NCBI GenBank assembly: GCA_934096265.1
Contig: CAKOLI010000001.1
Coordinates: 210,896 to 274,895 of the forward strand
Length of the DNA: 64,000 nt
Source: an uncultured Bacilli bacterium
Lineage (GTDB): Bacteria; Bacillota_I; Bacilli_A; RF39; UBA660
Direction of reading: 5' to 3'
Numbering within the stretch: position 1 is the first letter of the stretch; the number at the start of each line of letters is the position of its first letter. Made by a program: the position numbers and the translations under genes. The notes beneath the pieces are model-generated. The model saw nothing but the letters and a program-made list of their open reading frames with translations. It ran no database searches and was not told the DNA's origin. Positions 9,413 to 62,123 of the stretch are shown in pieces.

Positions 9413-11779
9413 ATGAAGAAGATTATATATATTGTAGGTGTTCTTGTTTTGAGTTTATTATTTTTAACTTTATATTCAACATATGCTATATTTACAACTT
9501 CTGTTTCTAGTAATACAGCGTTGAACTTGGATACGTCTTTAAATTATGATTTTGGAGTTAGTGGAGTTAAGAGGTTTACTTTAGATGCACAGACGGTTAT
9601 TAGTTTTAATATGATTATTAAGAATAATACTAGTAGTAATTTGAATTATGGTATTTATTATAGTTATGTTAGTGGTAGTGATGGTATAGTGGGAGAGGTT
9701 GTTAGTGATGCAAGTGCTGTTACTACTAGTAGTAATGCTAGTGGAGTTATAAATACTTCTTCTAGTAAGAGTGTGCCAATAGCTATATATAATAATACTT
9801 CTAGTACTTTAGTTATTGATATTGGGCTTGTTACTTCTAGTGGAAGCTTGGTATATCCAGATAATTCTTATGTGGTTAATAAGACTATTGATGATGATGT
9901 TCTTGGTAGTGATGCTTGTACTAGTAAGATTAATTATAAGGAAGATGATTGTTATAGTGTTAGGGAGAATGGGTATGTTAATACTTATTGTAAGGTTTTA
10001 GCGGGGACTACTAAGGTTAATAATTTAGATAAGTCTTCTGCGAGTATGCCTGAGCTTATAGATGGGATGATACCTGTATATCATGATGGTACTAGTTGGA
10101 TTAAGGCTAATTATCTTAATGATACTACTGTTAATCAGTGGTATGATTATGATGCTAAGAAGTGGGCTAACGCGGTAACTATAGATAATAATTATGTATA
10201 TGATAAGTCTTTAAATAATAATAATGCTTTAGTTAGTAATGTAACAAGAAGTGGCGATGGGGCTAGTTTTAATGGAAGTAGTAATTATATACAAATTCCT
10301 ACTGATTTAGGAGTAACTTTGCCCGCTACATACACGGTTAGATTTAAGACAGCATCTACTAGTAATCAAATATTATACGGTGATTATACTACTAAAGCGG
10401 CACTTGGATTATATAATAGTAATAATCAATTGATTGTAATATTAGGAAGTAGTGCTACTAATATGTTTGATACTGGTGGTTTAACTTTAAATACTTTTTA
10501 TACAGTTACTGTAGTATATAATAGTTTAACTGATATTACTGTGTATTTAAATGGAACAGCACTTACTAAATCGTCTTCTTCAAATAATTGGTCATGGAGT
10601 GATACAAATTCATATATTGGTAAGAGAGCAGCAGGAACATATTTTTCTGGTACAATAAGTAATTTTGTAGTACATAATAAGGCAGTATCTTCAAGTGAAA
10701 TAGCTAGTTTGGCTAAGTTAGAAGTACCTAGTGATAATTTAAAATTAAATTATGATTTTACATCTTCTACTAGGGAACAATTTATGAAAAGTAATGCGGG
10801 TACGGTTATTCCTGGAAATTCAATTAATGCTTATTATGTATGGATACCAAGGTATAAGTATAAGTTGTTTAATGTAGATTCAAACGCAATGATTCCAATA
10901 GAAATACAAGTAGAATTTGAAAATAAATATGCAAGTGATTATGTTAAGTCTACTGGTAGTACTAATGATACTTGGCTTACACATCCTGCGTTTACTTTTG
11001 GTACTGATGAATTATCAGGTATATGGGTAGGTAAGTTTGAAACTAGTGGTACTGCATATGCTCCTACTATAAAACCTAATTTAAGTTCATTGACTAAGCA
11101 AACTGCACTAACTCAGTTTAATACATCAAAGGTATTTGGTACAAGTGCTTATTTAACAAATGATGGGGTAAGTGAAGCAGATGCCCATATGATGAAGAAT
11201 ACAGAGTGGGGAGCGGTAGCATACTTAAAACAAAGTAAATATGGATTAGGTACTACCGACATAGCAAATAATGCATATTATGAAAGTAATTATATGGCAG
11301 GATGTGGACCTGCGAGTGAAACAGATTTAACAAGTGAAACAACAACATGTACAAGTTATACAAGTACTGCAGGAATTAAAGCATCTACCACAGGTAATAT
11401 TACAGGTATATACGATATGGCAGGTGGAGCATCTGAAAATGTAATGGGAGTAGCAAAAACAGAAAATGGAACTTCTTTTGTATATTCTGAATCTGGTTTT
11501 ACTACAAGCACATTACCTTTAGGAAGTAAATATGTAGATGCATATACATACGGAACATCAATGAGTGATTATGCAAGAAGAATACTAGGAGATGCTACAG
11601 GAGAGGTTAGAGGTTTGTATGATGATAATGCGCATTTCGTCGACTCTGTCGAATCATGGTTCGTTCGTGGTGGCTACGGTTCTAATGGGTCTCGTGCGGG
11701 TGTGTTCCACTTCAATATGAGTGATGGGGAAGGCGGTCGCAACTATACTTTTCGTTCTGTACTTATAAAAAATAACTAG
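9413..11779 (+). CDS. Paralog A of the secreted/surface protein family. SipW-cognate-like signal, TasA/camelysin-like N-domain, inserted LamG-like (ConA-like lectin) domain, conserved C-terminal lectin-like domain.
   Basis: N-terminus MKKIIYIVGVLVLSLLFLTLYSTYAIFTTS resembles the TasA/CalY signal (GT-A/Y-A-Y/F-F-[ST]). The LamG_3 pattern is ASFNGSSNYIQIP...TVVYN...VYLNGTAL...IGKRAAGTYFSGTISNFVVHNKAVSSSEIASLA. The C-terminal 350 aa are shared with 11792..13576 and 49603..51414. Confidence 0.6.
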   Translation: MKKIIYIVGVLVLSLLFLTLYSTYAIFTTSVSSNTALNLDTSLNYDFGVSGVKRFTLDAQTVISFNMIIKNNTSSNLNYGIYYSYVSGSDGIVGEVVSDASAVTTSSNASGVINTSSSKSVPIAIYNNTSSTLVIDIGLVTSSGSLVYPDNSYVVNKTIDDDVLGSDACTSKINYKEDDCYSVRENGYVNTYCKVLAGTTKVNNLDKSSASMPELIDGMIPVYHDGTSWIKANYLNDTTVNQWYDYDAKKWANAVTIDNNYVYDKSLNNNNALVSNVTRSGDGASFNGSSNYIQIPTDLGVTLPATYTVRFKTASTSNQILYGDYTTKAALGLYNSNNQLIVILGSSATNMFDTGGLTLNTFYTVTVVYNSLTDITVYLNGTALTKSSSSNNWSWSDTNSYIGKRAAGTYFSGTISNFVVHNKAVSSSEIASLAKLEVPSDNLKLNYDFTSSTREQFMKSNAGTVIPGNSINAYYVWIPRYKYKLFNVDSNAMIPIEIQVEFENKYASDYVKSTGSTNDTWLTHPAFTFGTDELSGIWVGKFETSGTAYAPTIKPNLSSLTKQTALTQFNTSKVFGTSAYLTNDGVSEADAHMMKNTEWGAVAYLKQSKYGLGTTDIANNAYYESNYMAGCGPASETDLTSETTTCTSYTSTAGIKASTTGNITGIYDMAGGASENVMGVAKTENGTSFVYSESGFTTSTLPLGSKYVDAYTYGTSMSDYARRILGDATGEVRGLYDDNAHFVDSVESWFVRGGYGSNGSRAGVFHFNMSDGEGGRNYTFRSVLIKNN

Positions 11780-11791
11780 TGAGGTGGATTT

Positions 11792-13576
11792 ATGAAAAAG
11801 GCTTTTGTTTTAATAGGTGTTATTGTAAGTGGATTAATTGCATTATCTTTATATTCTACTTATGCTATGTATGTATCTGTAAGTAATGATATTAATATGT
11901 CTACTTCACTTAGTTATGAATTTAATATAGATAATCAATCTACTTTCAAAATTCCTGCGAATAAGGTATTACATTTTAATGCTATTATTAAAAATCCTTA
12001 TGATGCTTCTTTAAAATATGGTATATATCATACATATACTTCTTCAAATAGTAATGTTATTATAGGAGAAGTAGTTAGTGATAAGAGTAGTGTTACTGTA
12101 GCTCCATCTACTTCTGGAAGTATAGATGCTAATAAGACTATGACTATTCCTATCGCGGTTATAAATAAGACTTCTAGTGAAATTAGTGTTAGTTTTGGTG
12201 TTATATATGGATATATCAATAATGATATTACTTATAGTAGTAACCAAAAGTTAATTACTAGTACGGTAAATAATGAAGATGTATATAATGAAAGTTGTGT
12301 TAATAATTATCAATTTGATGAGAGTACTTGTACTGTTAAGTTAGAAAATGGTAATTTAAATAAGTATTGTAATGTTATGATTGGACAAGAGAAAATAAAA
12401 CCTAATGCTCCAGTCCTAGCAGAAGGCATGATACCAATTAAATGGGATGGTTCTAAGTGGGTTAAAGCAAGTAGTACAAATAGTAATAATGATTGGTATG
12501 ATTATGATACTAAGAAATGGGCAAATGCCGTGATGGTTAGAACAGATAAGGATTCTAATGTTTCTGATTCTAAGTCTAGGGAACAATATATGAGTGCTAT
12601 AGAAGGCACAAAAATATTAGAGAGTGATATATTAGCTTATTATGTATGGATACCAAGATATAGTTATCAGTTATTTAATGTAAATTCGGAAATAATGGAC
12701 CCAATAGAAATACAAGTAGGGTTTGAAAACAAGACAGATACTAAATCTACTGGAAGTACAAATGGTTCTTGGCTTACACATCCTGCGTTTACTTTTGGTA
12801 CTGAAGAGTTATCAGGTATATGGGTAGGCAAGTTTGAAACTAGTGGGACTGCAGATACGCCTACCGTAAAACCTAATCTAAGTTCATTGACAAAGCAAAA
12901 AATATCAACTCAGTTTGTAACAAGTCGAAAATTTGGGACATCAACTTATTTAAATGGTACTGCAGAAATTGATGCTCATATGATGAAGAATACAGAATGG
13001 GGAGCAGTAGCATACTTAAAGCAAAGTAAATATGGATTAGGTCTTACTGATATAGGTAATAATGCATATTTAGCAGATGCCGAGCCATATTATATGGCAG
13101 GATGTGGTCCTTTAAGTGAAACAGATTTAACTGGATATGGTGCTACATGTACAAGCTATATGAGTACAGCAGGAGTAATGTCATCCACAACTGGCAATGT
13201 ATACGGAGTATATGATATGGCAGGAGGAGCATATGAAGATGTAATGGGAGCAATGAAAAATAGTAATGGAACGGGTTTTATATATTCATCTTCTGGATTT
13301 ACTGCAAGTACACTCCCTTTAGGAAGTAAATATATAGATGCATATACATATGGAATATCACAGAGTGATTATACAAGAAGAATATTAGGAGATGCAACAG
13401 GAGAAGTTAGATATTGGTATAAGGATAATTGTAATTTTGTTTCTAATAGTACCTCATGGTTCGAACGTGGAGGCAATACTAAAGGTGGTGTTGGCGCAGG
13501 TGTATTCTACTTTGTCCTATACCCTGGTCTTGCCAACGTTGCCCATTCTTTCCGTTCTGTTTTAACACCTCAATAA
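11792..13576 (+). CDS. Paralog B. Same signal type, TasA-like N-domain and conserved C-terminal domain; no LamG insert.
   Basis: N-terminus MKKAFVLIGVIVSGLIALSLYSTYAMYVSVSND. C-terminal block (WLTHPAFTFGTEELSGIWVGKFETSG...MMKNTEWGAVAYLKQSKYGLG...MAGCGP...FRSVL) about 80% identical to paralogs A and D. Confidence 0.6.
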   Translation: MKKAFVLIGVIVSGLIALSLYSTYAMYVSVSNDINMSTSLSYEFNIDNQSTFKIPANKVLHFNAIIKNPYDASLKYGIYHTYTSSNSNVIIGEVVSDKSSVTVAPSTSGSIDANKTMTIPIAVINKTSSEISVSFGVIYGYINNDITYSSNQKLITSTVNNEDVYNESCVNNYQFDESTCTVKLENGNLNKYCNVMIGQEKIKPNAPVLAEGMIPIKWDGSKWVKASSTNSNNDWYDYDTKKWANAVMVRTDKDSNVSDSKSREQYMSAIEGTKILESDILAYYVWIPRYSYQLFNVNSEIMDPIEIQVGFENKTDTKSTGSTNGSWLTHPAFTFGTEELSGIWVGKFETSGTADTPTVKPNLSSLTKQKISTQFVTSRKFGTSTYLNGTAEIDAHMMKNTEWGAVAYLKQSKYGLGLTDIGNNAYLADAEPYYMAGCGPLSETDLTGYGATCTSYMSTAGVMSSTTGNVYGVYDMAGGAYEDVMGAMKNSNGTGFIYSSSGFTASTLPLGSKYIDAYTYGISQSDYTRRILGDATGEVRYWYKDNCNFVSNSTSWFERGGNTKGGVGAGVFYFVLYPGLANVAHSFRSVLTPQ

Positions 13577-18378: not shown

Positions 18379-18678
18379 GTGATATCTATGGATAGTTTAA
18401 GGATTAATTATGATGAAACTATTTCAGTGGGAAATCAAGTGTCAAATAAAGGAGGAGAATTTCAAGACCTTTTGACTAAAATTAAGTCTATTAATTCTGA
18501 ATTGAAGAGTTATTGGGAAGGTAGTGATGCTTCTAAATATGCGTCTGCTGTTGAACAACAATCTGTATATATGCAAGAACTTGCTGATACTATTAATGAA
18601 ATAGGTGGATTTTTAGTAAAAGTTGGGCAAGCATATCGTGAAGCTTGCCAAAATAATGCAAATGCTATTAAAGGTTAG
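18379..18678 (+). CDS. WXG100 family protein (EsxA-like)
   Basis: 99 aa helical hairpin with central W-x-G (YWEGSDA). Confidence 0.8.
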   Translation: MISMDSLRINYDETISVGNQVSNKGGEFQDLLTKIKSINSELKSYWEGSDASKYASAVEQQSVYMQELADTINEIGGFLVKVGQAYREACQNNANAIKG

Positions 18679-18689
18679 GAGGTTAAAAT

Positions 18690-18980
18690 ATGGATTTTTC
18701 TAAATTATCGTATGGTCAAGTCCAATCAATGGCGGAACAATTAAAGACTTCTGCAGATAAAATGGAAACTCTTTTAAGTGAAATTAAGACATTATTTGAT
18801 AAAATTGGAACAGATGATGTTTGGAGTGGAACAGCTGCGGCTGCTACTAAAGAAACATTTGATCAATTGAGTGCTAAATTTCCTGAGTTTTCTCAATCAA
18901 TAAGTGAATGTTCTACATACTTAGTATCTATGGTTGAAAATTATCAATCAGTTGATTCTATGGTTACAGGTGGTAAGTAA
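18690..18980 (+). CDS. WXG100 family protein
   Basis: 96 aa, central WSG (DVWSGTAA). Confidence 0.75.
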   Translation: MDFSKLSYGQVQSMAEQLKTSADKMETLLSEIKTLFDKIGTDDVWSGTAAAATKETFDQLSAKFPEFSQSISECSTYLVSMVENYQSVDSMVTGGK

Positions 18981-19061
18981 AATGAGCTCAAGTGAGCTCT
19001 TCTTACAGATGGATAATAATTCTTGATTACTATCTATCTGTGAGGAGTTGGGAGTGATAAA

Positions 19062-19355
19062 TTGAATATAGAGATAAATGTTTCAGATGTAGCAAGTTAT
19101 GGGAAACAGATGGTTGAGTGTTCTGGTATGTTTGATGATTCTGTAAAAGAATTTAATGCTTTGATAGATGCTATTAATACTATTTGGGATGGAGCAGATG
19201 CTTTAAAGTATGTAAATACTATGAGAGAGAAATATATTGTTGGGTTAAATGAGCTTAAAGAGTATATGTTAGAATATGGAACTTATTTACAGAAGGTGCC
19301 TGAGAGTTATTCGGCGCTTGATGAAGTGTTTTCATCAAAAAATATAGATGTGTGA
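19062..19355 (+). CDS. WXG100-like protein, possible Lap1-type LXG-effector targeting factor
   Basis: 97 aa, central WDG (TIWDGADA). Its stop overlaps the next gene's start by 4 bp (ATGA). Confidence 0.6.
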   Translation: MNIEINVSDVASYGKQMVECSGMFDDSVKEFNALIDAINTIWDGADALKYVNTMREKYIVGLNELKEYMLEYGTYLQKVPESYSALDEVFSSKNIDV

Positions 19356-19705
19356 GGTGGGGTATGAATATATCATATAGTCAAGTAGAATCACAATGTA
19401 ATCAATTACATGAAACAGCTAAAAAAATGAAGGATATATTAGATATGGTTTCAGAAATAAGAAAGAATGCTTGTAATAGTGCTTCTTGGAATGGAGAGGC
19501 ATCTAATGCATATTCAGAGAAATTAAGTTTGCTGATTGGAAGTTTTGATGAGGCATTTTTAGAGATAGAAAATAGTATTTTGTATATGGCTAGTTGTTCT
19601 TCTGGATATCAAGCATTAGATCAACGGGTAATGCAAGAGATTTGCTCTAATTTAAATATTACCGAACCTAATTTAAGTACGTCTAATATTTTTGGTGTTA
19701 ATTAG
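19352..19705 (+). CDS. WXG100-like protein, possible Lap-type targeting factor
   Basis: 117 aa, central WNG (SWNGEASNA). Translationally coupled to the upstream gene. Confidence 0.6.
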   Translation: MRWGMNISYSQVESQCNQLHETAKKMKDILDMVSEIRKNACNSASWNGEASNAYSEKLSLLIGSFDEAFLEIENSILYMASCSSGYQALDQRVMQEICSNLNITEPNLSTSNIFGVN

Positions 19706-19706
19706 T

Positions 19707-20192
19707 ATGGATTTTGAAAATGTAGATGTACCTAGTTTGGTAAATGCACTTACACAATGCAAAGATTCGATAGATTATAAGGCGTCTTTAGAGTTAATTA
19801 ATGATATATCAAATGTTTCTGTATGGCAATCTTCTTCACAATCAAATTTAAAAAATGCTCTAACGATACTTACCACGAATAGGTATACAGAACTTAAAGA
19901 TAAGATAGATTGTTATTTGACTGTAGCTTCTTATATAGCACAATATCAAAACTTAAGCAAAGAGAATATTCTTTTAAATAAGCAATATAATGATTTGTCT
20001 TATAAATTATATTATGAAGAAGAGTATGAAACTCCTGTTACTTTAGCAGATGGAACTGTAATTAATGAGATAAATACAAGAAAAGTTATGGATAAAAATA
20101 TAAATAATCAAATGAATAATATAAAAAATAAAATAGATAAAAATAAAGAAAAAATGGATGAATTAAAAAAAATAATATATAATTCTATTTAA
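19707..20192 (+). CDS. small helical T7SS-associated protein (possible Lap2/DUF3958-like)
   Basis: About 160 aa, predicted all-helical. Sits between the WXG-like genes and the effector. No specific motif recognised. Confidence 0.35.
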   Translation: MDFENVDVPSLVNALTQCKDSIDYKASLELINDISNVSVWQSSSQSNLKNALTILTTNRYTELKDKIDCYLTVASYIAQYQNLSKENILLNKQYNDLSYKLYYEEEYETPVTLADGTVINEINTRKVMDKNINNQMNNIKNKIDKNKEKMDELKKIIYNSI

Positions 20193-20205
20193 GGAGGAAA
20201 GAAAA

Positions 20206-20487
20206 ATGAATTATGAAAAATATTTACCTATAGGTACAGTTGTGATTTTAAAAAATGGTACAAAGAGGGTTATGATTACTGGTTTTTGTTCAATATCTAA
20301 TGGAGATAAATCAAAAGTTTTTGATTATTCTGGATGTTTGTATCCAGAAGGGTTTATTTCTTCTAATCAAACTTTGTTATTTAACCATGATCAAATAGAG
20401 AAAGTATTTTATTTGGGGTTTGTAGATGATGAAGAAAAAAACTTTAAAGCTAAATTAAATGAAATGCTAAAACAAATTAATCAATAA
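20206..20487 (+). CDS. DUF4176-like small protein (T7SS/LXG-associated family)
   Basis: 93 aa. Motifs LPIGTVVILKNG...VMITGF...GCLYPEGF...LFNHDQIEKVFYLGF fit my memory of the DUF4176 consensus. Confidence 0.55.
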   Translation: MNYEKYLPIGTVVILKNGTKRVMITGFCSISNGDKSKVFDYSGCLYPEGFISSNQTLLFNHDQIEKVFYLGFVDDEEKNFKAKLNEMLKQINQ

Positions 20488-20518
20488 TTTAATTAAATAT
20501 TTGGAAAGGAGTAAAAAA

Positions 20519-23365
20519 ATGAATGATATGTTCAAGATTAATGTTTCATTGTTAAAATCTTATGAAAGTAAATTTAATACAGAATTAAATAGTTTTAATA
20601 ATAAAACTTATGCTACCTTTTCATCTAGTTATTTAAATAGTTGTGCTGATGGTTGTGTTAGTAAGATGGCAAGCCAACTAGAAAAAATATATGAAACAAT
20701 AAAAAAAGGATATACAAATATTGATAAGTGGTGGATTGATTATAATGATAATGCTTCTGGGTTAGAAAATTATTTGTCTGGCAAAGGTAGTCTTGGATCA
20801 ATATCTGAAGCAAGTATTAGGAATAGTGCTAGTCAGTTACCTGAATTAAAAAAATATAATCTTGATTTTGCAGGGATTATTCCTGCTGGTATAGCTGGTG
20901 CAGAATATGGTATGGCGTTTGCTAATAACACGGTAGTATCTAGTGTTGGTACATTTGATACGATAGATTCTGAAGTTCCTTCTTTAGGCTCAGTAATATC
21001 TGATACAGTTGAGAGTGTATTTTCGGGTATTGCTGGTTGGTTTTCGTCTATACCTTGGTTAGAGAATGCCGCTAATTTTTATTGGAATATAATTAAATCT
21101 ACTGGTGCTACTTTGGCAGTTTTTGTTCAATCTTTAATTCAAGGAATAGGTCAGTTTGTAGAAGCAATAGTTGATCTTGTGGCTATTGTTGGTACTGCTG
21201 CTGCATCTATTGTAACTGGATTATGGGATGGTGGCCAAGCTATTTGGGGAGCAATAACTGGTGAAGATTGGGAATCTTTAACAAAAAAAATGTGGAATGG
21301 GACAATGGGGTTTGTTGCAACCCAATATGTTGTAGGTTGGATGGATTTATTATATCAAAATACTGGATATGGTCAATGGTTAGTTGATAATGCCCTAGGT
21401 TTTGATATTGTTAGAGGTATTGGGTCAGGAATAGGATATGTTGCTGGGATAGTAGCTTTAACTATTGCAACATTTGGAGTTGGAGGAGTCGCTGTTGCGG
21501 GAGGTAGTGCGGCCGCTGGAGGTGCTACTGCTGCCGCCGCTGGGAGTGCTACTGCCGCGGGTGGTATTACTATGTCTACTCAATTAGCAATAACTGCCAC
21601 GGCTGCTGGAATAGGAAAGGGCGTACAGAATGCTTGGGCTGATGGTGCAAGTTTAGTTAAAGGATTAATCGCCGGAATACTTAATGGCCTATGGGAAGGA
21701 TTTCAATTTTATATAGGTGGTAAAATTAGTGGCTTGAATATTTTTGGGGGAAAAGGCCTTTTAGAATCAGTAAAGCTTTCAGGTGTAGGTACACAAGTAT
21801 TGAATAGTCTTGGTCGTATAATTTTAGATGGTATTGATGGTGGCGCAGAAGGTTTTGTTACTCCTCTTATTCAGACTATATATAAAGATGGTTATTATGA
21901 TGAGAATGGAGAGTATGTTGAGTTTTCAGATGTTAAGAGTCTTTCTGATGTTTTCGAACGTTATGGTAAAATATTTGAGGAAAATGGTGGCTTTGTAAAT
22001 GTCTTGACGCAAGCTTCTGTTGGTGCAATATCTTCTTTGATAGGGGAACTGTTTGATTTAAGAAAATATTTTGGTAATAAGAAGAGTGAAAGTAAAGTTA
22101 ATATGACATCTGATGAGTTGCAAATAACGCTTGATAAATATAATGAATTAATGGAAATTAAAAATAGTGATGATTATAAGAAATATATGGATTTGAAGAA
22201 TAATAAGTTATTTAAAGGTTCTATGCCAGAGTTTGATGGTGTAGAAAATGAACTTGCATCTATTTCTCTTGAACTAGCGCGTTATAAGTATAATCAATTA
22301 GTAGAAATTAAAAATAGTGATGATTATATTTCGTATATGGATAATGTTAAGAATGGATATAATCAAACTCCAAGACCAGAATTTGATAATATAGAAATGG
22401 AGTTTAAGGCGGTAGAATCTGACTTGGCAAAGATGGTACGACAACAACAATTTAAAATAGAAAAAGATAATGCTTTAAATGAATTTCAAAAAGTGATTAA
22501 AAAGGGCAAAAAGAGTGATAAAGAAGCAATAGACCTTATGTATGAACTTTTTGATACTAGTATTGTAGATGAAAACTGGGATGCCTTGAATGCATTACAG
22601 GCATTTAATAAAGCTAAAGAGAAAAATCCTTCAATACATCTAACTTCACTTGATGGACGAAATTGCTATAGTCCTTATTCTTATTCTATAAATATTAATA
22701 AAGGCAATAAAGTAAAAGAATTTATGGCTCATGAATTAGGTCACTTGTTCCATTTTGAATTACTAGATGAGGTTACTCCTGATAATTTCAATATGCTACT
22801 TGATAATGCGCGAGCTAGTTTATCACCAGATTCAGTAACAAATCAATTTAGTAGTTATTATAATGAAGCTAAAAAAGAGTTTAACGATTTAGCATTAAAT
22901 GATTATTACACTTCTAAATTAGATTCTGATTTTTCTAGATTTTCTAGTATAGAGAATAAATCTCCTTATGTTAATATGACATATGATGAATTTCTAAAAG
23001 CATACACTGAAGACTTTGCAAAAAAACATCCTGAGGTTTCAGTAAGTGATTTAGAATATTTGACTACAAATGATATTAGAATGGATATTTATGCTGTAAA
23101 TACAGAATATATGTATGATAATGGCATTCAAGCACTTTCTGATATTTGTGATGCTTTTTTAAAAGGAAAACTTGATGTTCCAGGTGCACTGGGTCATGGT
23201 GTAGCGTATTATTCTCTTCCTGATGATAGAGAGTTTAAGGAAATGATTGCAAACTTTACTGCAATGAAAATTATGGGAAATAAAAAAACTTTACAAATGA
23301 CAAAAGAAATAATTGGTACATCATTGTATGATGTACTTGATGGTACTTTTAAGCAATTTAAGTAG
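20519..23365 (+). CDS. Large T7SS substrate: LXG-like N-terminal helical domain, glycine-zipper hydrophobic core and C-terminal HEXXH metallopeptidase-like domain (candidate polymorphic toxin)
   Basis: N-terminal about 120 aa helical with L-S-G (YLSGKGSLG). Residues about 120-400 are rich in GxxxG/AxxxG runs (GIGSGIGYVAGIVALTIATFGVGGVAVAGGSAAAGGATAAAAGSATAAGG). The C-terminal region has HELGHLFHFE. Start moved to the ATG after RBS GGAAAGGAG. Confidence 0.55.
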   Translation: MNDMFKINVSLLKSYESKFNTELNSFNNKTYATFSSSYLNSCADGCVSKMASQLEKIYETIKKGYTNIDKWWIDYNDNASGLENYLSGKGSLGSISEASIRNSASQLPELKKYNLDFAGIIPAGIAGAEYGMAFANNTVVSSVGTFDTIDSEVPSLGSVISDTVESVFSGIAGWFSSIPWLENAANFYWNIIKSTGATLAVFVQSLIQGIGQFVEAIVDLVAIVGTAAASIVTGLWDGGQAIWGAITGEDWESLTKKMWNGTMGFVATQYVVGWMDLLYQNTGYGQWLVDNALGFDIVRGIGSGIGYVAGIVALTIATFGVGGVAVAGGSAAAGGATAAAAGSATAAGGITMSTQLAITATAAGIGKGVQNAWADGASLVKGLIAGILNGLWEGFQFYIGGKISGLNIFGGKGLLESVKLSGVGTQVLNSLGRIILDGIDGGAEGFVTPLIQTIYKDGYYDENGEYVEFSDVKSLSDVFERYGKIFEENGGFVNVLTQASVGAISSLIGELFDLRKYFGNKKSESKVNMTSDELQITLDKYNELMEIKNSDDYKKYMDLKNNKLFKGSMPEFDGVENELASISLELARYKYNQLVEIKNSDDYISYMDNVKNGYNQTPRPEFDNIEMEFKAVESDLAKMVRQQQFKIEKDNALNEFQKVIKKGKKSDKEAIDLMYELFDTSIVDENWDALNALQAFNKAKEKNPSIHLTSLDGRNCYSPYSYSININKGNKVKEFMAHELGHLFHFELLDEVTPDNFNMLLDNARASLSPDSVTNQFSSYYNEAKKEFNDLALNDYYTSKLDSDFSRFSSIENKSPYVNMTYDEFLKAYTEDFAKKHPEVSVSDLEYLTTNDIRMDIYAVNTEYMYDNGIQALSDICDAFLKGKLDVPGALGHGVAYYSLPDDREFKEMIANFTAMKIMGNKKTLQMTKEIIGTSLYDVLDGTFKQFK

Positions 23366-23391
23366 GTAATTAAGGAAAGAGATGGTTATAT

Positions 23392-23634
23392 ATGGATGAT
23401 AAAGATAATAGATTGTTATGGAATATTTTGGAAGTTAAATATTTAAAAATGTTTGGTAGAGAGATTAGTTGTGATCCGAATGATAGTTATGACCTTTTTC
23501 CTTTAGGTTGGTATTTGGATATTGATGTTGATACAAAGATTAAAATTTTATTAGAGGCATTAGAGAATAATAAAAAAATAGTAGATACATCTTTATATCA
23601 AGATATGTTGAATGAAAGAGATAAAAGATTATAA
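23392..23634 (+). CDS. candidate immunity protein for the upstream effector (80 aa)
   Basis: Small ORF immediately 3' of the toxin C-terminal domain, the position typical of immunity genes. No homology recognised. Confidence 0.35.
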   Translation: MDDKDNRLLWNILEVKYLKMFGREISCDPNDSYDLFPLGWYLDIDVDTKIKILLEALENNKKIVDTSLYQDMLNERDKRL

Positions 23635-23694
23635 ATATATATCAGAATATATCAGACCTTTTTATGATGTTATTTTAGGAAGGAGTATAATACA

Positions 23695-26600
23695 ATGCGA
23701 GTTTCAACGATAAGGGCATTAAAAATTAATAATATACTGTTACCAGATAAGATAGAAGGGAATTATTGGATTGATGGTACTGATGATAATGGTATAAAAA
23801 GGAATTTAATATCTATAGAGTCTTATGATGGTAAATGGAGATTAATAAGTAATAAGGAAGTTTATTGTGTAGTAGCTGGGGAGAAGGTTCCATATATTAA
23901 TTTGGAAGAGGGTAAATTTTATTTAGTGGTTAATAGTGTAGCTAAGGAAAATTTATTGTTGTATTGTTCTTCTGTTTTGGCTAGTTATAATTGTTATGAT
24001 ATAGAAGAATTTTTGAAAGATGGAATAACTATTGGTAGTGAACCTAGTAATTTGATTACGTATTCTATTTTAGATTCTTTATGTGCTTGTATTAAATATG
24101 AAAAGGGAAATGTTTTTGTTGTAGATAATAAGTCAAGATGTGGTGTGTATGTAAATGATGTTAGAGTTATAGGAAAAAGGGAGTTAAAAATAGGGGATAT
24201 TATTTTTATTGCTGGTGTGAAGATTATATTTTCTATAAATTCTAAAAAGACTCATTGTATTTATGTTAATGATGGTTCTTTAAATGGAGTGGGTGTGAAA
24301 TTATCAAAAACTGTGGATATGCAAGTAGTTAATAATGATTTTTATGAATTAGAGCAGGAAGTGGAATATCCATTATATGATGAGAAAGATTATTTCCATA
24401 AGGTTCCTAGGTTTTTTCAAAAAGATGAGGCTTTAGTTTTACAAGTTGATCCACCTCCTGCGAAAGTAGATGAAGGGAATAATTCTTTATTATTGACAAT
24501 AGGTCCAATGATAACGATGTCTATGACTTCTTTGGTTACTGGTTATATGGCTTTAAATAATGTTTTAAATGGGGATGCTACTTGGGCTAAAGCGACACCT
24601 TCGTTAGTTATATGTGGCGCGATGTTTGCTAGTGTATTTATATGGCCTATATTTACTAAGTGGTATGATAAGAAAAATAGAATTAAGAATGAGTTGCTTA
24701 GGCAGCAAAAATATAGTGAGTATATAGAAGCTAAGAGGAAGATGATTATAGAAGCTAAAAACCAACAGACGGCAATATTGACAAATAATTATATAAATAT
24801 AAAAGAGGCTGTAGATACTATTTTAAGAAAATATACTGGGTTATGGCAACGTAGGATAGAAGATGATGACTTTTTAGATGTAAATTTGGGATATGGAAGT
24901 TATCCAATGAAAATTGATATTAAGTATCCAGAAGAAAGGTTTTCAATGGTTGAGGATAATCTAAAGGATATGGTATTAAAGTTAGGGCAAGAGCCTAAGT
25001 TGTTGTTAAATGTACCAGTTGTGTTTTCTTTAAGGGAAGCTTTTATAAGTGGTATAATTGGTGGGTATGAAATTAATGAGTTTACTAGAAGGTTGTTAAT
25101 TCAAATACTTGCTTTACATAGTTATGATGATTTGAAAATTGTTTTTTTGACTGATGAAGAAAAAGAATCTGAATGGAAGGTATTTAAACAGGTTCCTCAT
25201 TGCTTTTCTGATGATAAGAGTTTAAGATTTTTCGCGACAAATAATGATGAATATAAAGAGGTTTGTTATTATTTAGATAAGATTTTTGATTATAGAAAAG
25301 AAAAGTCTAATACGGATAGTAAGATAAATAGTTTTAATCAATCTTTTTTAATAGTGACAGATAGTTTTAAGAAGATTAGGAATTTTGATATTATTAAAGA
25401 TATTTTGGAGAGTAAGAAATATTATGGTTTTAGTATTTTGATTTTAGATAATAAGATAACTAATTTGCCTGATCAATGTTCTGATTTTATAAGTTTAAGT
25501 AAGGATAATGGGGAACTTAGAAATAATAAGAATATAACTGAAAGTATTAAATTTTCGGTGGATTTATTATCAAGTGTTGATTATGATGGTTGTGTTAAGG
25601 CATTAGCTAATATTCCAATAGAATTGTCTTTAGATGATGAAAACCAAATTGCCTCTAAGATAGGTTTTTTAGAGATGTATGATGTTGGGAAGATAGAACA
25701 GTTGAATTCTCCGACTAGGTGGGTTAAAAATAATCCAATTTTAAATTTGCAAGTTCCGGTTGGTATTGGTAAAAGTGGGGAAAAGATTACGATTGATTTG
25801 CATGAGAAGTATCATGGTCCACATGGGTTAATTGCTGGTATGACGGGAAGTGGGAAGTCAGAGTTTATTATTACGTATATTTTATCAATGGCTATAAATT
25901 ATCATCCATATGAAGTTCAGTTTATTTTGATTGATTATAAAGGTGGAGGATTAGCGGGGGCTTTTGAGAATAGTAGTACTGGATTAAAGTTACCACATTT
26001 GGTTGGAACTATTACTAATTTGGATGCTAATGAGATAAAGAGGAGTCTTGCTTCTATTGATTTTGAGTTAAAAAGAAGGCAAGCATTATTTAATACTGCA
26101 AGGGAATTTTCTGGAGAGGGTACAATTGATATTTATAAGTATCAAAAGATGTATAGAGATGGTATTGTTAAGGAACCTGTTTCACATTTGTTTATTATAT
26201 GTGATGAGTTTGCAGAATTAAAGAGTCAGCAACCAGAGTTTATGGCACAGTTAATTTCAACAGCACGTATTGGTCGTTCTTTAGGGGTGCATTTGATTTT
26301 AGCTACGCAAAAGCCAAGTGGTGTGGTCGATCCCCAAATATGGAGTAATACAAGATTTAGAGTATGTATGAGGGTGCAAGATAAGTCTGATTCAAATGAG
26401 GTTATTAAATGTCCTGATGCTGCATATTTAAAGCAAACAGGAAGGTTTTATTTTCAAGTAGGGTTTAATGAAGTGTTTTTACTAGGACAAGCTGCTTATG
26501 CTGGTGGGAAATATATTCCATCTGAAAAGGTAACTAAGACAATAGATACAACTATTAATTTTATTGATAATATTGGTTATACGATTAAGAAGGTTGATAC

Positions 26601-28326
26601 TAAGGTTAAAACTGATACTGTAGTTGTGGATATTGGAGAGGAATTAAGTAATATAGTAAAATATTTAGATAATATTGCAAAGGAACAAAATATTAAATGT
26701 AGGCCATTATGGTTGGAGAAGATTCCAGAGGATATTAGAATAGAGAATTTGGCTTTAAAATATAAATATGAGAAAGAAGAATATATAATTAATCCAATTA
26801 TTGGGGAATATGATATACCTTCAAGGCAAGAACAAGCTTTGTTAACTTTGCCATTATCAAAAGAGGGTAATGCATTGATTTATGGTTCTTCAGGAAGTGG
26901 TAAAGAAAACTTTATTACAACATTGCTTTATTCATCTAGTATGTATTATTCACCAGAAGAGGTAAATTATTATGTAGTTGATTTTGGTTCTGAAGTTTTA
27001 AGGATGTTTAATGATTATCCAATTGTAGGTGATATATTAGATTCAGATGATGAAGAGAAAATTAAAAATTTATATAAGATGTTAAACGCGACGATTGAAG
27101 AGAGAAAGATTTTATTTTCTGAATATAATGGAGATTATTATACTTATTGTAAGAATAATGGTAAGGCTATTCCAAGTATTGTAGTAGTTATAAATAATTA
27201 TGAGTCATATCAAGAAACATATCCAGAGTTTGATGATATGCTTATTGTATTATCAAGGGAGTGTAATAAATATGGTATATTCTTTGTGCTTACTGTTAAT
27301 ACTCCGAATGGGTTACGTTTTAAGTTAAGACAAAATTTTTCGTTAACATATGTATTGCAACAAAATAGTAATGATGATTATACAACTATTTTAGGTAATG
27401 TATATAAAAATTATCCTGCAAAGATTTTTGGTAGAGGGATTTTTAAGACGGATGATGTATATGAATTTCAAACTGCTTTGGTAAGTGATAAGGATAATAT
27501 TATTAAATATGTAAAAGATAAGAAAAATGAGTTAAAGAATAAATATTCTACTATGGCTAAGCGAATTCCTGTTTTGCCTAATGTTGTGGATTATTCTTCA
27601 ATATATAAAGATTTTGGTAAGTCATCATCTTTAATTATTGGTATTGATAAATCTTCTTTGAAAATATGTAAATTTGATTTTAATAAAAATTATTTAACTA
27701 TAATTTCAATGTTGGATTTAACTGCAAGTAGTAATTTTTTAAATCCATTTATAAATCAAATTATTGCTAATAATAATTCAATGTTATTTGTTATAAATGC
27801 TTCTGATGACGAGATAGATGATAAGTATAAATCACAATATCAGTATGTTGATCATCAATTTAATGAGGTTTTTGTTAATTTATTAAATTTTGTGAAAGAG
27901 CAATATGATGGTTATGTTAAAAATGATTATAATAAGAATATTTTTAATAATATGAGGAAGGTATATTGTATTATAATAGGGATTGATTCTTTTAAGATGC
28001 GTCTTAATGATGATAACAAGAGTAAATTTGCTGATTTATTTATAAACGGTAAGGATTTAGGTATAATTAGTTTTATAATTGTAGATAGTATTGATCAGAT
28101 TAGAAAGGTAGAGATGGAATCTTGGTATAAAAATTGTGTTAATAACAATTTTGGTATTTGGATAGGTAATGGTATAAATGATCAGTTTAGTTTGAGGATA
28201 AGTCAAAAGATTGAAGAGATGAAAGAAGATGTTCCGAATAATTTCTGTTTTGTAATTAAACGCGGTAGGGTTCAATATGTAAAATTCGTTGAAAAATTAG
28301 AGTTAGATATTAAAAGTAATGAGTAA
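23695..28326 (+). CDS. essC: T7SS FtsK/SpoIIIE-family ATPase EssC/YukBA
   Basis: 1543 aa. N-terminal FHA-like region, 2 TM segments (about aa 270-320), three P-loop ATPase domains (GMTGSGKSE; LILATQKPSGVVD; degenerate GSSGSGKEN). Confidence 0.9.
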   Translation: MRVSTIRALKINNILLPDKIEGNYWIDGTDDNGIKRNLISIESYDGKWRLISNKEVYCVVAGEKVPYINLEEGKFYLVVNSVAKENLLLYCSSVLASYNCYDIEEFLKDGITIGSEPSNLITYSILDSLCACIKYEKGNVFVVDNKSRCGVYVNDVRVIGKRELKIGDIIFIAGVKIIFSINSKKTHCIYVNDGSLNGVGVKLSKTVDMQVVNNDFYELEQEVEYPLYDEKDYFHKVPRFFQKDEALVLQVDPPPAKVDEGNNSLLLTIGPMITMSMTSLVTGYMALNNVLNGDATWAKATPSLVICGAMFASVFIWPIFTKWYDKKNRIKNELLRQQKYSEYIEAKRKMIIEAKNQQTAILTNNYINIKEAVDTILRKYTGLWQRRIEDDDFLDVNLGYGSYPMKIDIKYPEERFSMVEDNLKDMVLKLGQEPKLLLNVPVVFSLREAFISGIIGGYEINEFTRRLLIQILALHSYDDLKIVFLTDEEKESEWKVFKQVPHCFSDDKSLRFFATNNDEYKEVCYYLDKIFDYRKEKSNTDSKINSFNQSFLIVTDSFKKIRNFDIIKDILESKKYYGFSILILDNKITNLPDQCSDFISLSKDNGELRNNKNITESIKFSVDLLSSVDYDGCVKALANIPIELSLDDENQIASKIGFLEMYDVGKIEQLNSPTRWVKNNPILNLQVPVGIGKSGEKITIDLHEKYHGPHGLIAGMTGSGKSEFIITYILSMAINYHPYEVQFILIDYKGGGLAGAFENSSTGLKLPHLVGTITNLDANEIKRSLASIDFELKRRQALFNTAREFSGEGTIDIYKYQKMYRDGIVKEPVSHLFIICDEFAELKSQQPEFMAQLISTARIGRSLGVHLILATQKPSGVVDPQIWSNTRFRVCMRVQDKSDSNEVIKCPDAAYLKQTGRFYFQVGFNEVFLLGQAAYAGGKYIPSEKVTKTIDTTINFIDNIGYTIKKVDTKVKTDTVVVDIGEELSNIVKYLDNIAKEQNIKCRPLWLEKIPEDIRIENLALKYKYEKEEYIINPIIGEYDIPSRQEQALLTLPLSKEGNALIYGSSGSGKENFITTLLYSSSMYYSPEEVNYYVVDFGSEVLRMFNDYPIVGDILDSDDEEKIKNLYKMLNATIEERKILFSEYNGDYYTYCKNNGKAIPSIVVVINNYESYQETYPEFDDMLIVLSRECNKYGIFFVLTVNTPNGLRFKLRQNFSLTYVLQQNSNDDYTTILGNVYKNYPAKIFGRGIFKTDDVYEFQTALVSDKDNIIKYVKDKKNELKNKYSTMAKRIPVLPNVVDYSSIYKDFGKSSSLIIGIDKSSLKICKFDFNKNYLTIISMLDLTASSNFLNPFINQIIANNNSMLFVINASDDEIDDKYKSQYQYVDHQFNEVFVNLLNFVKEQYDGYVKNDYNKNIFNNMRKVYCIIIGIDSFKMRLNDDNKSKFADLFINGKDLGIISFIIVDSIDQIRKVEMESWYKNCVNNNFGIWIGNGINDQFSLRISQKIEEMKEDVPNNFCFVIKRGRVQYVKFVEKLELDIKSNE

Positions 28327-37837: not shown

Positions 37838-38135
37838 TATTTACTAATAATTAAATTTATGATATGATTAGTTCATAAAATAAGTGAATTTAAAAGTTAG
37901 AAAAAATTCGCAAATTTTTGATAAAAATTAATAAGATTTTAGGAGTTGATAGTGATGAGTAATGTTAACCAAAAATGTCCTAAAACCCTTATTTTACTAG
38001 GGGGGGGGGCAATTACAAATCCTTATAAATAAAGGGTTTAAGCCTCATTTTAACTATCAAAAATATATAAATCTATATTAGAGATATAGCTATTTTAGTT
38101 ATATTTTTTGATATAGTTTTTTTATATTTAATTAG
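37838..38135. repeat. Conserved about 300-bp upstream element, copy 1, with G10 tract (38000-38009) inside a 25-codon mini-ORF (37955-38032)
   Basis: About 90% identical to 49282-49582. Mini-ORF MSNVNQKCPKTLILLGGGAITNPYK is preceded by AGGAG 9 nt upstream. Confidence 0.85.
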
Positions 38136-38220
38136 TAGTATCTTATTAGTTAATTCTACACATTTTTAAATTATAATGTGGTATGATAATTTTAATGATA
38201 GAAAGGGAGTAAGAAAATAT

Positions 38221-40155
38221 ATGGATAATAACAAGAGAATATATTTAATAATAGGAGTAATAACTATTACTATGCTAATAATGGGAGCAACTACTGCGTG
38301 GTTTACTTGGAATAGTACAGATAATACAGATGTAACGTTTAATGTAGAAGGTTTAGATATTACTTATACAGGAGATGAAAATGTATTAAATAAAAAGCTA
38401 TATCCTACATCCTCGATGACTAATACTGATAATGTAATACATAAATTTAGCCTAGTAACTACATCTAATATAGATATATATACTAAAATATCATTAGATA
38501 TAATAAAACTAGATGATAACTTAAAAGATGTATCATTTAGATGGAACTTATATAAAGAAGATACATCTATTGCCAGTGGTAACTTTAGTAATGCTACAGT
38601 AGGTAGCGATGTACTACTTACTCAAGCAATGATAACAACTACATCAACTAATTACACATTATTTATCTGGATAGATGGAGAAAACTACAGTAACCCAATA
38701 GCCATGGGAGATAAAGAGTTTTATTTTAAATTAAAACTAGAAGCAGGCCAACAGGTATATCTTACTCCAGAAGAGTGCTTTAACTTTGATGAAAGTACTG
38801 GTACTATAACTAGTTATTTGTGCACTAGTGGTAATAGCAATAATTTACCAACTATAACGGATGTAGTAATACCTAGCGAAATTAATGGAGTAACAGTAAC
38901 TGCAATAAAAACTTGGGCATTTGTTAATCGTAATTTAACAAGCGTAACAATACCAGACAGTGTAATAACAATAGGAATGTATGCGTTTAATAATAACAAG
39001 CTAACAAGTATAAAAATCCCAAATAGTGTAACAACAATAGGCAGTTCTGCTTTTGGTAGAAACAACATAACAAGTATTTATATTCCAGATAGTGTAACTT
39101 CAATAGATGGTAATATAATTACTTATAATCCTAGTTTAGCAAGTATAACGGTATCCCCAAATAATAAAGTATACGATAGCAGAGACAATTCAAATGCAAT
39201 AATAGAAACATCTAGTAATACATTAATACAAGGATGTAAAAATACTATTATACCTAATACAGTTACCTCTATAGGACGTTCTTCTTTTTCTGGTAATGAT
39301 TTAGCAAGTATAACAATTCCAAATAGTGTAACAACAATAGGCAGTTCTGCTTTTTACACAAATAAACTAACAAGCATAACAATTCCAAATAGTGTAACAA
39401 CAATAGGTGGTAATGCTTTTGGGGGAAACGAAATAGCAAACATTTACATTCCAGAAAATGTAACTTCAATAGGTAGTAATGTGCTTGCTGTTAATCCTAG
39501 TTTAGCAAGTATAACGGTATCGCCCAATAATAAAGTATATGATAGTAGAAATAATTCAAATGCAATAATAGAAACATCTAGTAATAAATTAATACAAGGA
39601 TGTAAAAATACTGTTATACCTAATACGGTTGTATCAATAGGATATTTAGCCTTTGGTGGTTTAAATTTAACAAGTATAACAATACCAGACAGTGTCACAA
39701 CAATAGGTGATAATGTCTTTCAAGATAACAATTTAACAAGTATAACAATTCCAGACACTGTCACATCAATTGGAGACGAAGCTTTTCAATATAACAATTT
39801 AACAAGTATAACAATTTCAAATAGTGTAACAACAATAGGGTACCGTACATTTTATAATAATAATTTAACAAGTGTAACAATTCCAGATAACGTTACAACA
39901 ATAAAATATGAAGCCTTTGCTGATAACAATTTAACAACTGTGTATATAGGTAAAAATTCCAAACTAAGCAGCCTAGGGCGTAGTACCTTTGGTTCAACCT
40001 CATCATCTAACACTAACTTGTCTAAAATATACAATCTAGGTAGTAAATCATTAAATTGGAACTTAGCAATAACGGGTACATCTGGTACCGCTTTCGTAAG
40101 TGGCACAGTAACAACCTCTGATGGAAGAACAGTAACTATAACAACTAGTGAGTAA
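38221..40155 (+). CDS. Paralog C. SipW-cognate-like signal, TasA-like N-domain, BspA-type leucine-rich repeats (LRR_5); no lectin-like C-domain.
   Basis: N-terminus MDNNKRIYLIIGVITITMLIMGATTAWFTWNST. At least 12 repeats of the form ITIPNSVTTIGSSAF-N-LTS. N-terminal 200 aa homologous to the 49603 gene product. Confidence 0.65.
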   Translation: MDNNKRIYLIIGVITITMLIMGATTAWFTWNSTDNTDVTFNVEGLDITYTGDENVLNKKLYPTSSMTNTDNVIHKFSLVTTSNIDIYTKISLDIIKLDDNLKDVSFRWNLYKEDTSIASGNFSNATVGSDVLLTQAMITTTSTNYTLFIWIDGENYSNPIAMGDKEFYFKLKLEAGQQVYLTPEECFNFDESTGTITSYLCTSGNSNNLPTITDVVIPSEINGVTVTAIKTWAFVNRNLTSVTIPDSVITIGMYAFNNNKLTSIKIPNSVTTIGSSAFGRNNITSIYIPDSVTSIDGNIITYNPSLASITVSPNNKVYDSRDNSNAIIETSSNTLIQGCKNTIIPNTVTSIGRSSFSGNDLASITIPNSVTTIGSSAFYTNKLTSITIPNSVTTIGGNAFGGNEIANIYIPENVTSIGSNVLAVNPSLASITVSPNNKVYDSRNNSNAIIETSSNKLIQGCKNTVIPNTVVSIGYLAFGGLNLTSITIPDSVTTIGDNVFQDNNLTSITIPDTVTSIGDEAFQYNNLTSITISNSVTTIGYRTFYNNNLTSVTIPDNVTTIKYEAFADNNLTTVYIGKNSKLSSLGRSTFGSTSSSNTNLSKIYNLGSKSLNWNLAITGTSGTAFVSGTVTTSDGRTVTITTSE

Positions 40156-49273: not shown

Positions 49274-49281
49274 TAAAAATG

Positions 49282-49582
49282 TATTTACTAAAAATTAATT
49301 TTATGATATGATTAGTTCATAAAATAAGTGAATTGAAAAATGCCAAAAATTCACAAGTTTTGATAAAAATTAATAAGATTTTAGGAGTTGATAGTGATGA
49401 GTAAAGTTAACTATAAGTGCTCTAAAACCCTTATTTCACTAGGGGGGGGGGCAATTACAAAGCCTTATAAATAAAGGACTTAAGCCTCATTTTAACTATC
49501 AAAAAAACACATATAAATCTATATTAGAGATATAGCTATTTTTAGCTTGTATTTTTAATGTAGATTTTTTTATATTTAAATA
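49282..49582. repeat. Conserved about 300-bp upstream element, copy 2, with G10 tract (49442-49451) inside a 25-codon mini-ORF (49397-49474)
   Basis: Mini-ORF MSKVNYKCSKTLISLGGGAITKPYK, with the same RBS and spacing as copy 1. Confidence 0.85.
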
Positions 49583-49602
49583 AAAGAAGGAGAGTGTTGT
49601 AC

Positions 49603-61910: not shown

Positions 61911-62123
61911 GGCTCAAGATGTTAATTCTATTTATGTAATTTAATTGCAAAAGTTTAATACTACTAACTATTTAATTACAAATGGAGCAGGTATGGTAGA
62001 TGCTTATTTATACAAGAAGAATATTAGGAGAGTTCCTGTCGCAATTCCTTCCGTTTTGTTTTAACGACTTACTAGAATAATAAAAGAATATAGATTTAGT
62101 ATGAATACTTATATCTATATTCT

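Follow-up and report, generated by a model that had tools for sequence, protein, structure and literature searches.

The question raised by this locus is how genes that lie apart on one chromosome come to share long and nearly identical nucleotide blocks set in much more diverged sequence. The window analysed here (64,000 nucleotides (nt) of contig CAKOLI010000001.1, assembly GCA_934096265.1, from an uncultured Bacilli bacterium) is chromosomal DNA with about 30% G+C and nearly all genes on the + strand; it carries four genes, called A, B, C and D below, whose products are predicted to be exported. The likely answer is that these genes belong to a family of exported paralogues diversified by ectopic recombination, by replacement of whole cassettes and by slippage of G tracts, with a variable tip descended from targets of diversity-generating retroelements (DGRs). 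A first-pass annotation, made from the letters of the window, had placed four genes here, and all four were recovered, on the + strand; their coordinates and those of the two longest blocks that they share are as follows.

9413-11779, + strand: gene A, 788 amino acids; N-terminal hydrophobic signal or anchor, type-1 beta-sandwich N-domain, and C-type-lectin-fold module from 10049, interrupted by a LamG insert.
10187-10759, + strand: LamG (concanavalin-A-like) insert, in A only; 191 amino acids (residues 259-449).
11792-13576, + strand: gene B, 594 amino acids; type-1 N-domain and C-type-lectin-fold module from 12410.
38221-40155, + strand: gene C, 644 amino acids; type-2 N-terminal region and BspA-type leucine-rich repeats (LRRs) from about 38749.
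49603-51414, + strand: gene D, 603 amino acids; type-2 N-domain and C-type-lectin-fold module from 50194.
11375-11452 in A and 51010-51087 in D, + strand: exact match of 78 nt, core of an A~D conversion tract (about 11104-11451).
12602-12662 in B and 50374-50434 in D, + strand: exact match of 61 nt, core of a B~D tract (about 12412-12700).

Identity among A, B and D was scored in 60-nt windows, and sites at which two genes agree against the third were analysed on a codon alignment of the shared module. The two-against-one sites (n = 384) fell into 170 runs against 254 ± 9 expected (z = -9.2), and the longest odd-one-out run was 22, against a maximum of 17 in 10,000 shuffles. Four segments follow one another along the module: A is the odd one and B~D the closest pair at A 10051-10894 / D 50196-50472, D is the odd one (A~B) at A 10897-11102, B is the odd one (A~D) at A 11104-11451 / D 50724-51086, and A is odd again (B~D) at A 11453-11534. 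B and D are 82-100% identical where A stands at 52-72%, and later in the module A and D reach 92-100%. The exact matches of 78 nt and 61 nt are the longest between loci within the window and stand on a background of about 75% identity; at 75-78% identity, exact matches of about 20-25 nt would be expected by our estimate. Both blocks singled out in the first-pass annotation were found again: that of 11275-11460 with 50925-51110, given as about 93% identical, measured 162/174 (93%), and that of 12410-12730 with 50195-50480 proved highly similar (82-100% in 60-nt windows) but not to the claimed level of about 90%, with 255/299 (85%) when gaps are counted. Outside these blocks the alignments drop to 40-65% identity, so that divergence is not uniform, as is also evident from the runs test, the switching closest pair and the exact blocks. 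Uniform constraint cannot switch the closest pair, and the mosaicism of A, B and D is therefore recombination between non-adjacent paralogues. That no recombination took place at all, the identity blocks being the most constrained parts of the domain or artefacts of collapsed paralogues in assembly, is extremely unlikely: some blocks, such as HMMKNTEWGAVAYLKQSKYGLG, are indeed conserved in all three genes and all sequences are metagenome-assembled, but constraint does not account for a nearest pair that passes from B~D to A~B to A~D, two independent assemblies contain the A-B region of the window, and a third contains D, at 100% identity, and the same alleles recur in different samples.

The modules between which these exchanges occur were defined by alignment and profile searches. 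The C-terminal module common to A, B and D comprises about 390 amino acids (about 1.1 kb) and begins at the motif P(V/E)L(A/I)(D/E)GMIP; that of D contains a cysteine-containing insert of 17 amino acids at 50617-50667. The LamG insert of A, already named in the first-pass annotation, matched Pfam Laminin_G_3 (PF13385) when scanned alone (E 2.3e-14, 54 bits against a cut-off of 27.6), and the LRR module assigned to C matched LRR_5 (PF13306) above threshold in four stretches (E 1.9e-95, 316 bits), C also matching the HupY/LrrG adhesin model. Two N-terminal types, A/B and C/D, were likewise recovered, with 38% amino-acid identity between A and B and 43% between C and D; in the first 190 nt, C and D are 83% identical at the nucleotide level. 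The 5' leader, the signal and the first approximately 60 codons are common to C and the lectin-fold genes, the head of C being made of LRRs. B starts 12 nt past the end of A, and the two genes probably form one operon.

Loci of other strains were taken from metagenome assemblies and were found by exact-protein look-ups, the D locus being reached via MraZ (exact D has no gene on record). Housekeeping neighbours mark each site: A and B lie between recD2 and a phosphoglycerate mutase gene, C between a phosphoketolase gene and tyrS, and D immediately upstream of mraZ. At the A-B locus gene order was conserved; in three other strains (L079, L081 and L083) the flanks differed by 0-5 per 200 bp, and B by 19-148 per 200 bp from 12343 onwards, to 13137 in L079 or up to 13616 in L081. 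The part of B that holds 12602-12662 was replaced in all three strains, and the 3' end of B in L081 is of D type, its last 27 nt being identical to D; this 27-nt 3' end is the same in the D genes of the window and of L085 and in B of L081. A was almost invariant between strains while its matching partners differed. At the D locus the mraZ side was identical in ten assemblies; between strain groups D differed by 195-417 nt per 1.8 kb (11-23%) against 40-71 nt per 7 kb downstream (0.6-1%), and the divergent blocks varied from strain to strain. The C locus holds the LRR gene with a run of ten G (G10) in the window and in three assemblies; in four other assemblies it holds a D-like lectin-fold gene of 602 amino acids with no G tract, the downstream flank being 99.6% identical. 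Modules are thus reassorted across strains, as had been expected, with replaced blocks in B and D beside flanks of 99-100% identity and either an LRR or a D-like gene at the C locus, and the organisation is not identical in all strains.

A fifth locus, E (L084:6001-7753), lies between Mur-ligase genes and an RNase J gene and comes from the same sample as L086, with similar coverage. E is 94% identical to D of the window over 928 nt, 147 exact nt being common to both, and is broken by a deletion of about 62 nt, which takes the invariant LTHPAFTFG..GIW motif, and by a frameshift, leaving open reading frames (ORFs) of 314 and 282 amino acids. Further exact matches between loci depend on the strain: 101 nt between A and B of L081, 87 nt between B of the window and D of L085, and 82 nt between A and D of L089. 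When the divergent blocks of B were compared by blastn with all alleles, no single long donor was found; the tracts are therefore short and from several sources. The near-invariance of A suggests that A acts as a donor, in which case transfer would be non-reciprocal, and the decayed copy E possibly serves as a silent donor. If strains exchanged only alleles of the same locus by homologous recombination, with diversifying selection and never between paralogous loci, the import of orthologous alleles would give the same pattern as that of B and D, whose alleles differ in blocks among otherwise 99% identical strains. This reading is nevertheless very unlikely, given that exact matches of 61-147 nt join different loci (A/D, B/D, A/B of L081 and D/E) with strain-dependent partners, that the odd-one-out pattern is found within a single genome, and that a D-like gene stands at the C locus in some strains.

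Segmental conversion tracts together with decayed copies are also what programmed antigenic variation of the pilE/pilS, vlsE or MgPar type would leave, in which silent partial cassettes feed one expression site. In addition to the broken E of L084, blastn of family 3' ends against the window brought up one remnant, which includes a 24/24 match to B.

61999-62070, + strand: relic of a family-gene 3' end, 70 nt, in an intergenic gap; 'VDAY..YTRRILG' is fused to 'NSFRFVLTTY*', the variable region being deleted.

Against such a programmed system, tblastn of all four proteins versus the window returned the four full-length genes and no further copies, and each of A, C and D is equipped with a start codon, a signal sequence and a promoter-like site of its own, B (12 nt past A) sharing the promoter-like site of A. 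No array of promoterless fragments was seen in any strain locus examined. The analogy with antigenic variation drawn in the first-pass annotation thus holds for segmental transfer between copies, in exact tracts of 61-147 nt, but not for the silent promoterless cassettes that it had proposed to look for, and a programmed system of this type is decidedly improbable. Nor does the family have the four members first counted: with locus E and the relic come more than 7,900 homologues of the shared module, all unnamed, from gut metagenomes and from metagenome-assembled genomes (MAGs) labelled uncultured Bacilli or 'Tenericutes'. They often occur in many copies per genome, some with dockerin or type-IV-pilin-like N-termini; protein A itself has 14 cluster members from several samples. 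The shared C-terminal module had no match in Pfam (not even FGE-sulfatase) or NCBIfam.

The origin of the head was traced by its fold and by the composition of its last codons. Foldseek returned TaqVP, a DGR variable protein of Thermus aquaticus, at E 3e-6, and a domain-only family profile searched against Protein Data Bank sequences returned TaqVP at E 7e-6; a profile of the full-length alignment gave no match there, the domain-only alignment being needed. The module of A, B and D has a C-type-lectin/FGE-sulfatase-like fold related to that of solved DGR variable proteins; the lectin-like domain first assigned to these three genes was correct as to fold, but its identity as a DGR variable-protein domain had been missed. 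Variable-region-like segments were delimited at the 3' ends of the three genes (values for the segment are given against those for the gene body, with Fisher p for third-position C).

11606-11749, + strand: variable-region-like 3' segment of A, between GDATGE and FRS; adenine content 0.19 against 0.34, third-position C 13/48 against 16/725 (p 1e-9).
13406-13549, + strand: variable-region-like 3' segment of B; adenine content 0.23 against 0.36, third-position C 11/48 against 19/532 (p 7e-6).
51241-51387, + strand: variable-region-like 3' segment of D; adenine content 0.19 against 0.38, third-position C 13/49 against 28/540 (p 6e-6).

Third-position C thus makes up 23-27% in the tips of A, B and D against 2-5% in the gene body, and the invariant scaffold codons of the tips (GCG GGC GTG TTC) are without adenine. 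The last approximately 48 codons (GDATGE to FRS) are hypervariable throughout the family, at positions that fit an AAY-to-NNY repertoire, so that the genes end in a variable region with NNY codons on an adenine-free scaffold, as DGR targets do. Metagenomes scanned with a guessed template pattern yielded true DGR template repeats in other organisms. In L096, the variable region of a family gene and a repeat 220 nt downstream are identical at 103/133 positions, 19/24 mismatches falling on template adenines; L095 and L098 carry a template together with a MutS_I-like gene, bAvd and RVT_1, and in L057 MutS_I, bAvd and RVT_1 directly follow the family gene. Such cassettes correspond to the MSL+Avd accessory set described by Wu et al. 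(PMC5758913). Homologues have template/variable pairs and reverse transcriptase (RT) cassettes, and the family is therefore a DGR-target family. The variable tip bears a compositional scar of adenine mutagenesis, so that the family probably descends from DGR targets, and some members may still be targets. The variable segment of A resembles the template repeat of L095. For the window, the variable-region signature was treated as inherited. Two further arrangements were seen among these loci. At L057:8056-8513, upstream of the family gene, there are two tandem non-coding copies (311-nt period) of a 147-nt variable-region-like segment, neither of them a clean adenine-rich template. The family gene at L095:1748-3511 lies about 8 kb from the DGR cassette (about 13170-13300), and its variable region is AT-rich and does not match the cassette template; a single genome therefore contains both paralogues that are targeted and paralogues that are not.

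An active DGR elsewhere in the genome could mutagenise the D-type variable tips in trans and be the main diversifier, recombination being secondary. The fold of the head, the template/variable pairs and RT cassettes of homologues, the adenine-poor and NNC-rich variable regions of the window and the 27-nt 3' end that D of the window shares with D of L085 and B of L081 all fit such an element, as does the finding that all differences in the variable region among D of the window, of L086 and of L089 fall on positions 1-2 within five NNY codons. Remote targets are also documented for non-phage, cellular DGRs, at more than 100 kb from the RT (PMC5758913). On the other side, the 64-kb window contains no RT, Avd or template repeat (best E 0.7 in tblastn with RT and Avd); among 78 related loci an RT lay within 10 kb in one (L057) and an adenine-biased repeat pair within 10 kb in none; and L110, the locus of a dockerin-bearing homologue, has no RT. 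Viral contigs scanned for a template-like pattern and for a shorter template pattern gave none, and an RT profile search returned 4,858 reverse transcriptases, none of them tied to this species, so that the template of the species was found neither in the viral and metagenome scans nor by the profile search. A scan of viral contigs with the D-type 3' end returned one match, which was unrelated and due to chance. The variable region of D is identical in six assemblies (of two closely related strain groups only), that of the lectin gene at the C locus in four assemblies and that of A in three strains; no single template could serve A, B, D and E, whose 3' ends differ from one another; and divergence between strains lies mostly outside the variable region. 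A DGR acting in trans as the main diversifier is accordingly judged unlikely. Since the window lacks an RT and a template, and strains mostly agree in their variable regions, the diversifiers at work here are taken to be ectopic recombination, replacement of cassettes and slippage of poly-G tracts.

Slippage would enter through the leaders of C and D, for which the following elements were read from the sequence.

37840-37868, + strand: promoter-like TTTACT-N17-TATGAT upstream of C.
37941-38220, + strand: 5' leader cassette of C, with a Shine-Dalgarno-like AGGAG, a 25-codon upstream ORF (37955-38032) containing G10, and a proximal leader.
49284-49312, + strand: promoter-like site upstream of D.
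49383-49602, + strand: 5' leader cassette of D, with AGGAG, an upstream ORF (49397-49474) and G10 at 49442-49451.

The window contains two G10 tracts, at 38000-38009 and 49442-49451, against a chance expectation of 0.01. By alignment, the leader with AGGAG and the 25-codon upstream ORF is conserved in C, D and E; the promoter-like TTTACT-N17-TATGAT farther upstream is not conserved in every leader copy, and the leader of D had no match in Rfam. The upstream ORF would encode MS(N/K)VN..LGGGAIT.PYK, and G9 or G11 would shift the frame and move the stop. Across assemblies the G tract at D is length-polymorphic, with 8, 9, 9, 10, 10, 10, 10 and 11 G in the assembly consensus sequences. The G-tract switches proposed in the first-pass annotation were thus upheld as to tract length far beyond chance and polymorphism at D, but not at C, where the length is the same in four assemblies. 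In 1.16 Mb of related loci (L001-L078) there are 30 tracts of at least 8 G (8-13), all on the gene strand, for example at L020:1340, L030:9801 and L052:12484; most are followed, 26-200 nt downstream, by an ORF whose N-terminus is signal-peptide-like, and half of those ORFs have a lectin module. Several sit between TTGACA-like and TATAAT-like hexamers, as in TTGACT-tttacgtct-G9-11-TATGAT (flanks read by eye). These arrangements suggest a clade-wide promoter-slippage system, and phase-variable expression may be a recurrent trait of these gene families. In related MAGs the G tract is present without the conserved upstream ORF.

Beside the leader of D, two assemblies depart from the window: upstream of D, L088 and L089 carry quite different genes, one of them topA together with a sulfatase gene and the other priA with ABC-transporter and HAD genes. 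Homology breaks at window position about 49280-49400 and is regained where the conserved leader begins. Either the chromosome was rearranged via the repeated leaders or the assembly is chimeric.

The favoured mechanism, to which the opening statement refers as likely, would run as follows. A, B, D, the D-like gene at the C locus and E would be paralogous exported proteins. Each would begin with a hydrophobic segment serving as signal or anchor, continue in a stalk formed by one of the two types of Ig-like beta-sandwich, and finish in a C-terminal head for ligand binding, whose C-type-lectin fold is that typical of DGR variable proteins and whose hypervariable tip lies at the end. Ectopic homologous recombination (gene conversion) would move tracts of about 60-900 nt between the paralogous loci, with the invariant A and possibly decayed copies as donors, and whole gene-plus-leader cassettes would be replaced at a fixed chromosomal site. 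The G8-11 tract would slip within the conserved leader of C/D/E type and probably switch or tune expression. In its core this agrees with the earlier proposal of recombination and module shuffling between non-adjacent paralogues in a variable repertoire, which the mosaic blocks and the strain differences bear out. Several points count on the opposite side. Synonymous sites in invariant codons go in the same direction as the full set of two-against-one sites, with marginal significance (p = 0.04, 79 sites). The exchange could take place by intragenomic conversion or by ectopic recombination with DNA imported from other strains, two routes that are inseparable here. All sequences come from metagenome assemblies, which can misjudge the length of a homopolymer or make false joins at repeats. 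The tract at C is G10 in all four assemblies, and, lying 150-210 nt upstream of the start codon, the G tract fits no clear -35/-10 spacer in this species. A surface location is predicted solely from the N-terminal hydrophobic segment, and a role as adhesin or receptor is accordingly putative, as are the direction of conversion and an effect of the G tract on expression.

The export labels given in the first-pass annotation did not survive profile and fold searches. For the SipW-type signal, the best score with TIGR04088 was 7.3 bits (E 5.6) against a cut-off of 19, in C only, with no match in A, B or D; for the TasA/camelysin-like features, neither the whole proteins nor the isolated N-domains matched Peptidase_M73 or any other Pfam family. 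TasA was not among the matches listed in two fold searches (top 50 and top 60), and, of the listed matches, those apparently due to the N-domain are Ig-like sandwiches of a generic kind (PliG, MSP and Caf1M, for example). No signal-peptidase family, and thus no sipW-type signal peptidase, was present among the scanned window neighbours or the precomputed gene calls of the strain loci. In our reading the N-termini (..STYA/IF and ..TTA/WF, the slash marking the candidate cleavage site) resemble common signal-peptidase-I sites or anchors.

As a rule, DGR targets, gene-conversion families and homopolymer switches are investigated apart from one another, and mostly in pathogens or phages; here the signatures of all three are found on one gene family of an uncultured commensal lineage. 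The head of A, B and D has the C-type-lectin fold in common with the DGR variable proteins TaqVP, TvpA of Treponema denticola and Mtd of Bordetella phage BPP-1; unlike for these, no RT, Avd or template is present in the window, the variable regions are mostly stable, and diversity lies mainly in the body of the domain and arises via recombination. As in Neisseria pilE/pilS, Borrelia vlsE, Mycoplasma genitalium MgPa/MgPar and Treponema tprK, short tracts are copied between dispersed homologues and strains differ in mosaic alleles; unlike in those systems, the copies in the window are all complete and potentially expressible, no silent array or dedicated expression site being seen, and variation was observed between strains and not within a lineage. 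The long G tract in an AT-rich genome, length-polymorphic and upstream of predicted surface-protein genes, resembles that of contingency loci (poly-G or poly-C of Neisseria porA/opc, poly-G of Campylobacter, poly-A of Mycoplasma vlp). In the Neisseria porA promoter the homopolymer tract lies between -35 and -10 (PMC3639595), and by reading of the flanks the tracts of related genomes lie between -35-like and -10-like hexamers in the same way; in the window species, by contrast, the tract is inside a conserved leader with a 25-codon upstream ORF, at the distance from the start codon given above, and the host, in contrast to the classical contingency-locus pathogens, is an uncultured and apparently spore-forming member of the Bacilli. 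C resembles BspA-like LRR surface proteins by its matches to PF13306 and the HupY/LrrG model and differs from them in sharing leader, signal and about 60 codons with lectin-fold genes and in having a lectin-fold gene at its locus in other strains.

What is new is the combination of known mechanisms in an undescribed family and host. It is tentatively proposed, as a possibility rather short of even, that this gut-Bacilli family of more than 7,900 members began as DGR targets and here took on conversion between paralogues, swapping of lectin and LRR heads and poly-G tracts, so that recombination would diversify the lectin-fold scaffold without any retroelement; if true, this would be a type of contingency-locus system so far undescribed in spore-forming gut Firmicutes. 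The family stands outside Pfam and NCBIfam despite its thousands of members and many copies per genome. Global surveys have raised the idea of recombination fusing domains to lectin-fold variable heads and reshuffling them there (PMC8144416), and the family offers a concrete and testable case for it. In the gut, its genes are likely to determine attachment in a strain-specific manner, or recognition by phages or the immune system, and they may cause assembly breaks in MAGs of this group.

Further observations concern the surroundings of the family genes. Genes annotated as PDDEXK_2 and HTH_Rpn_C (recombination-promoting-nuclease-like) lie at 56283-57216 (L085:14614-15547), 5 kb downstream of D, and their sizes depend on the strain (226, 254+105 or 106+117 amino acids, by precomputed annotation); a Pfam scan of window 56536-57216 gave no match, unlike that annotation, and a link of these genes to recombination in the family is speculative. 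The skew (G-C)/(G+C) is +0.4 to +0.55 in nearly every 2-kb bin of the window, which is unusually extreme, and drops to 0.06-0.31 in the bins with A/B, C and D; amino-acid composition, recombination or orientation turnover could be the source of the low skew of the family genes. Sporulation genes flank family genes in two other loci, one for a small acid-soluble spore protein (SASP) in L084 and those for SpoVA, CotE, YlbD and Cse60 in L110. The sample that yielded L084 also yielded a strain of the window species; the host lineage is probably a spore-former if L084 and L110 belong to it, despite the label 'Tenericutes' on some related MAGs. At 18379-28326 the window contains six small ORFs (93-166 amino acids) and an ORF of 954 amino acids, followed by an FtsK/SpoIIIE ATPase of 1543 amino acids with an FHA domain, and this cluster looks like one for type-VII-like secretion.

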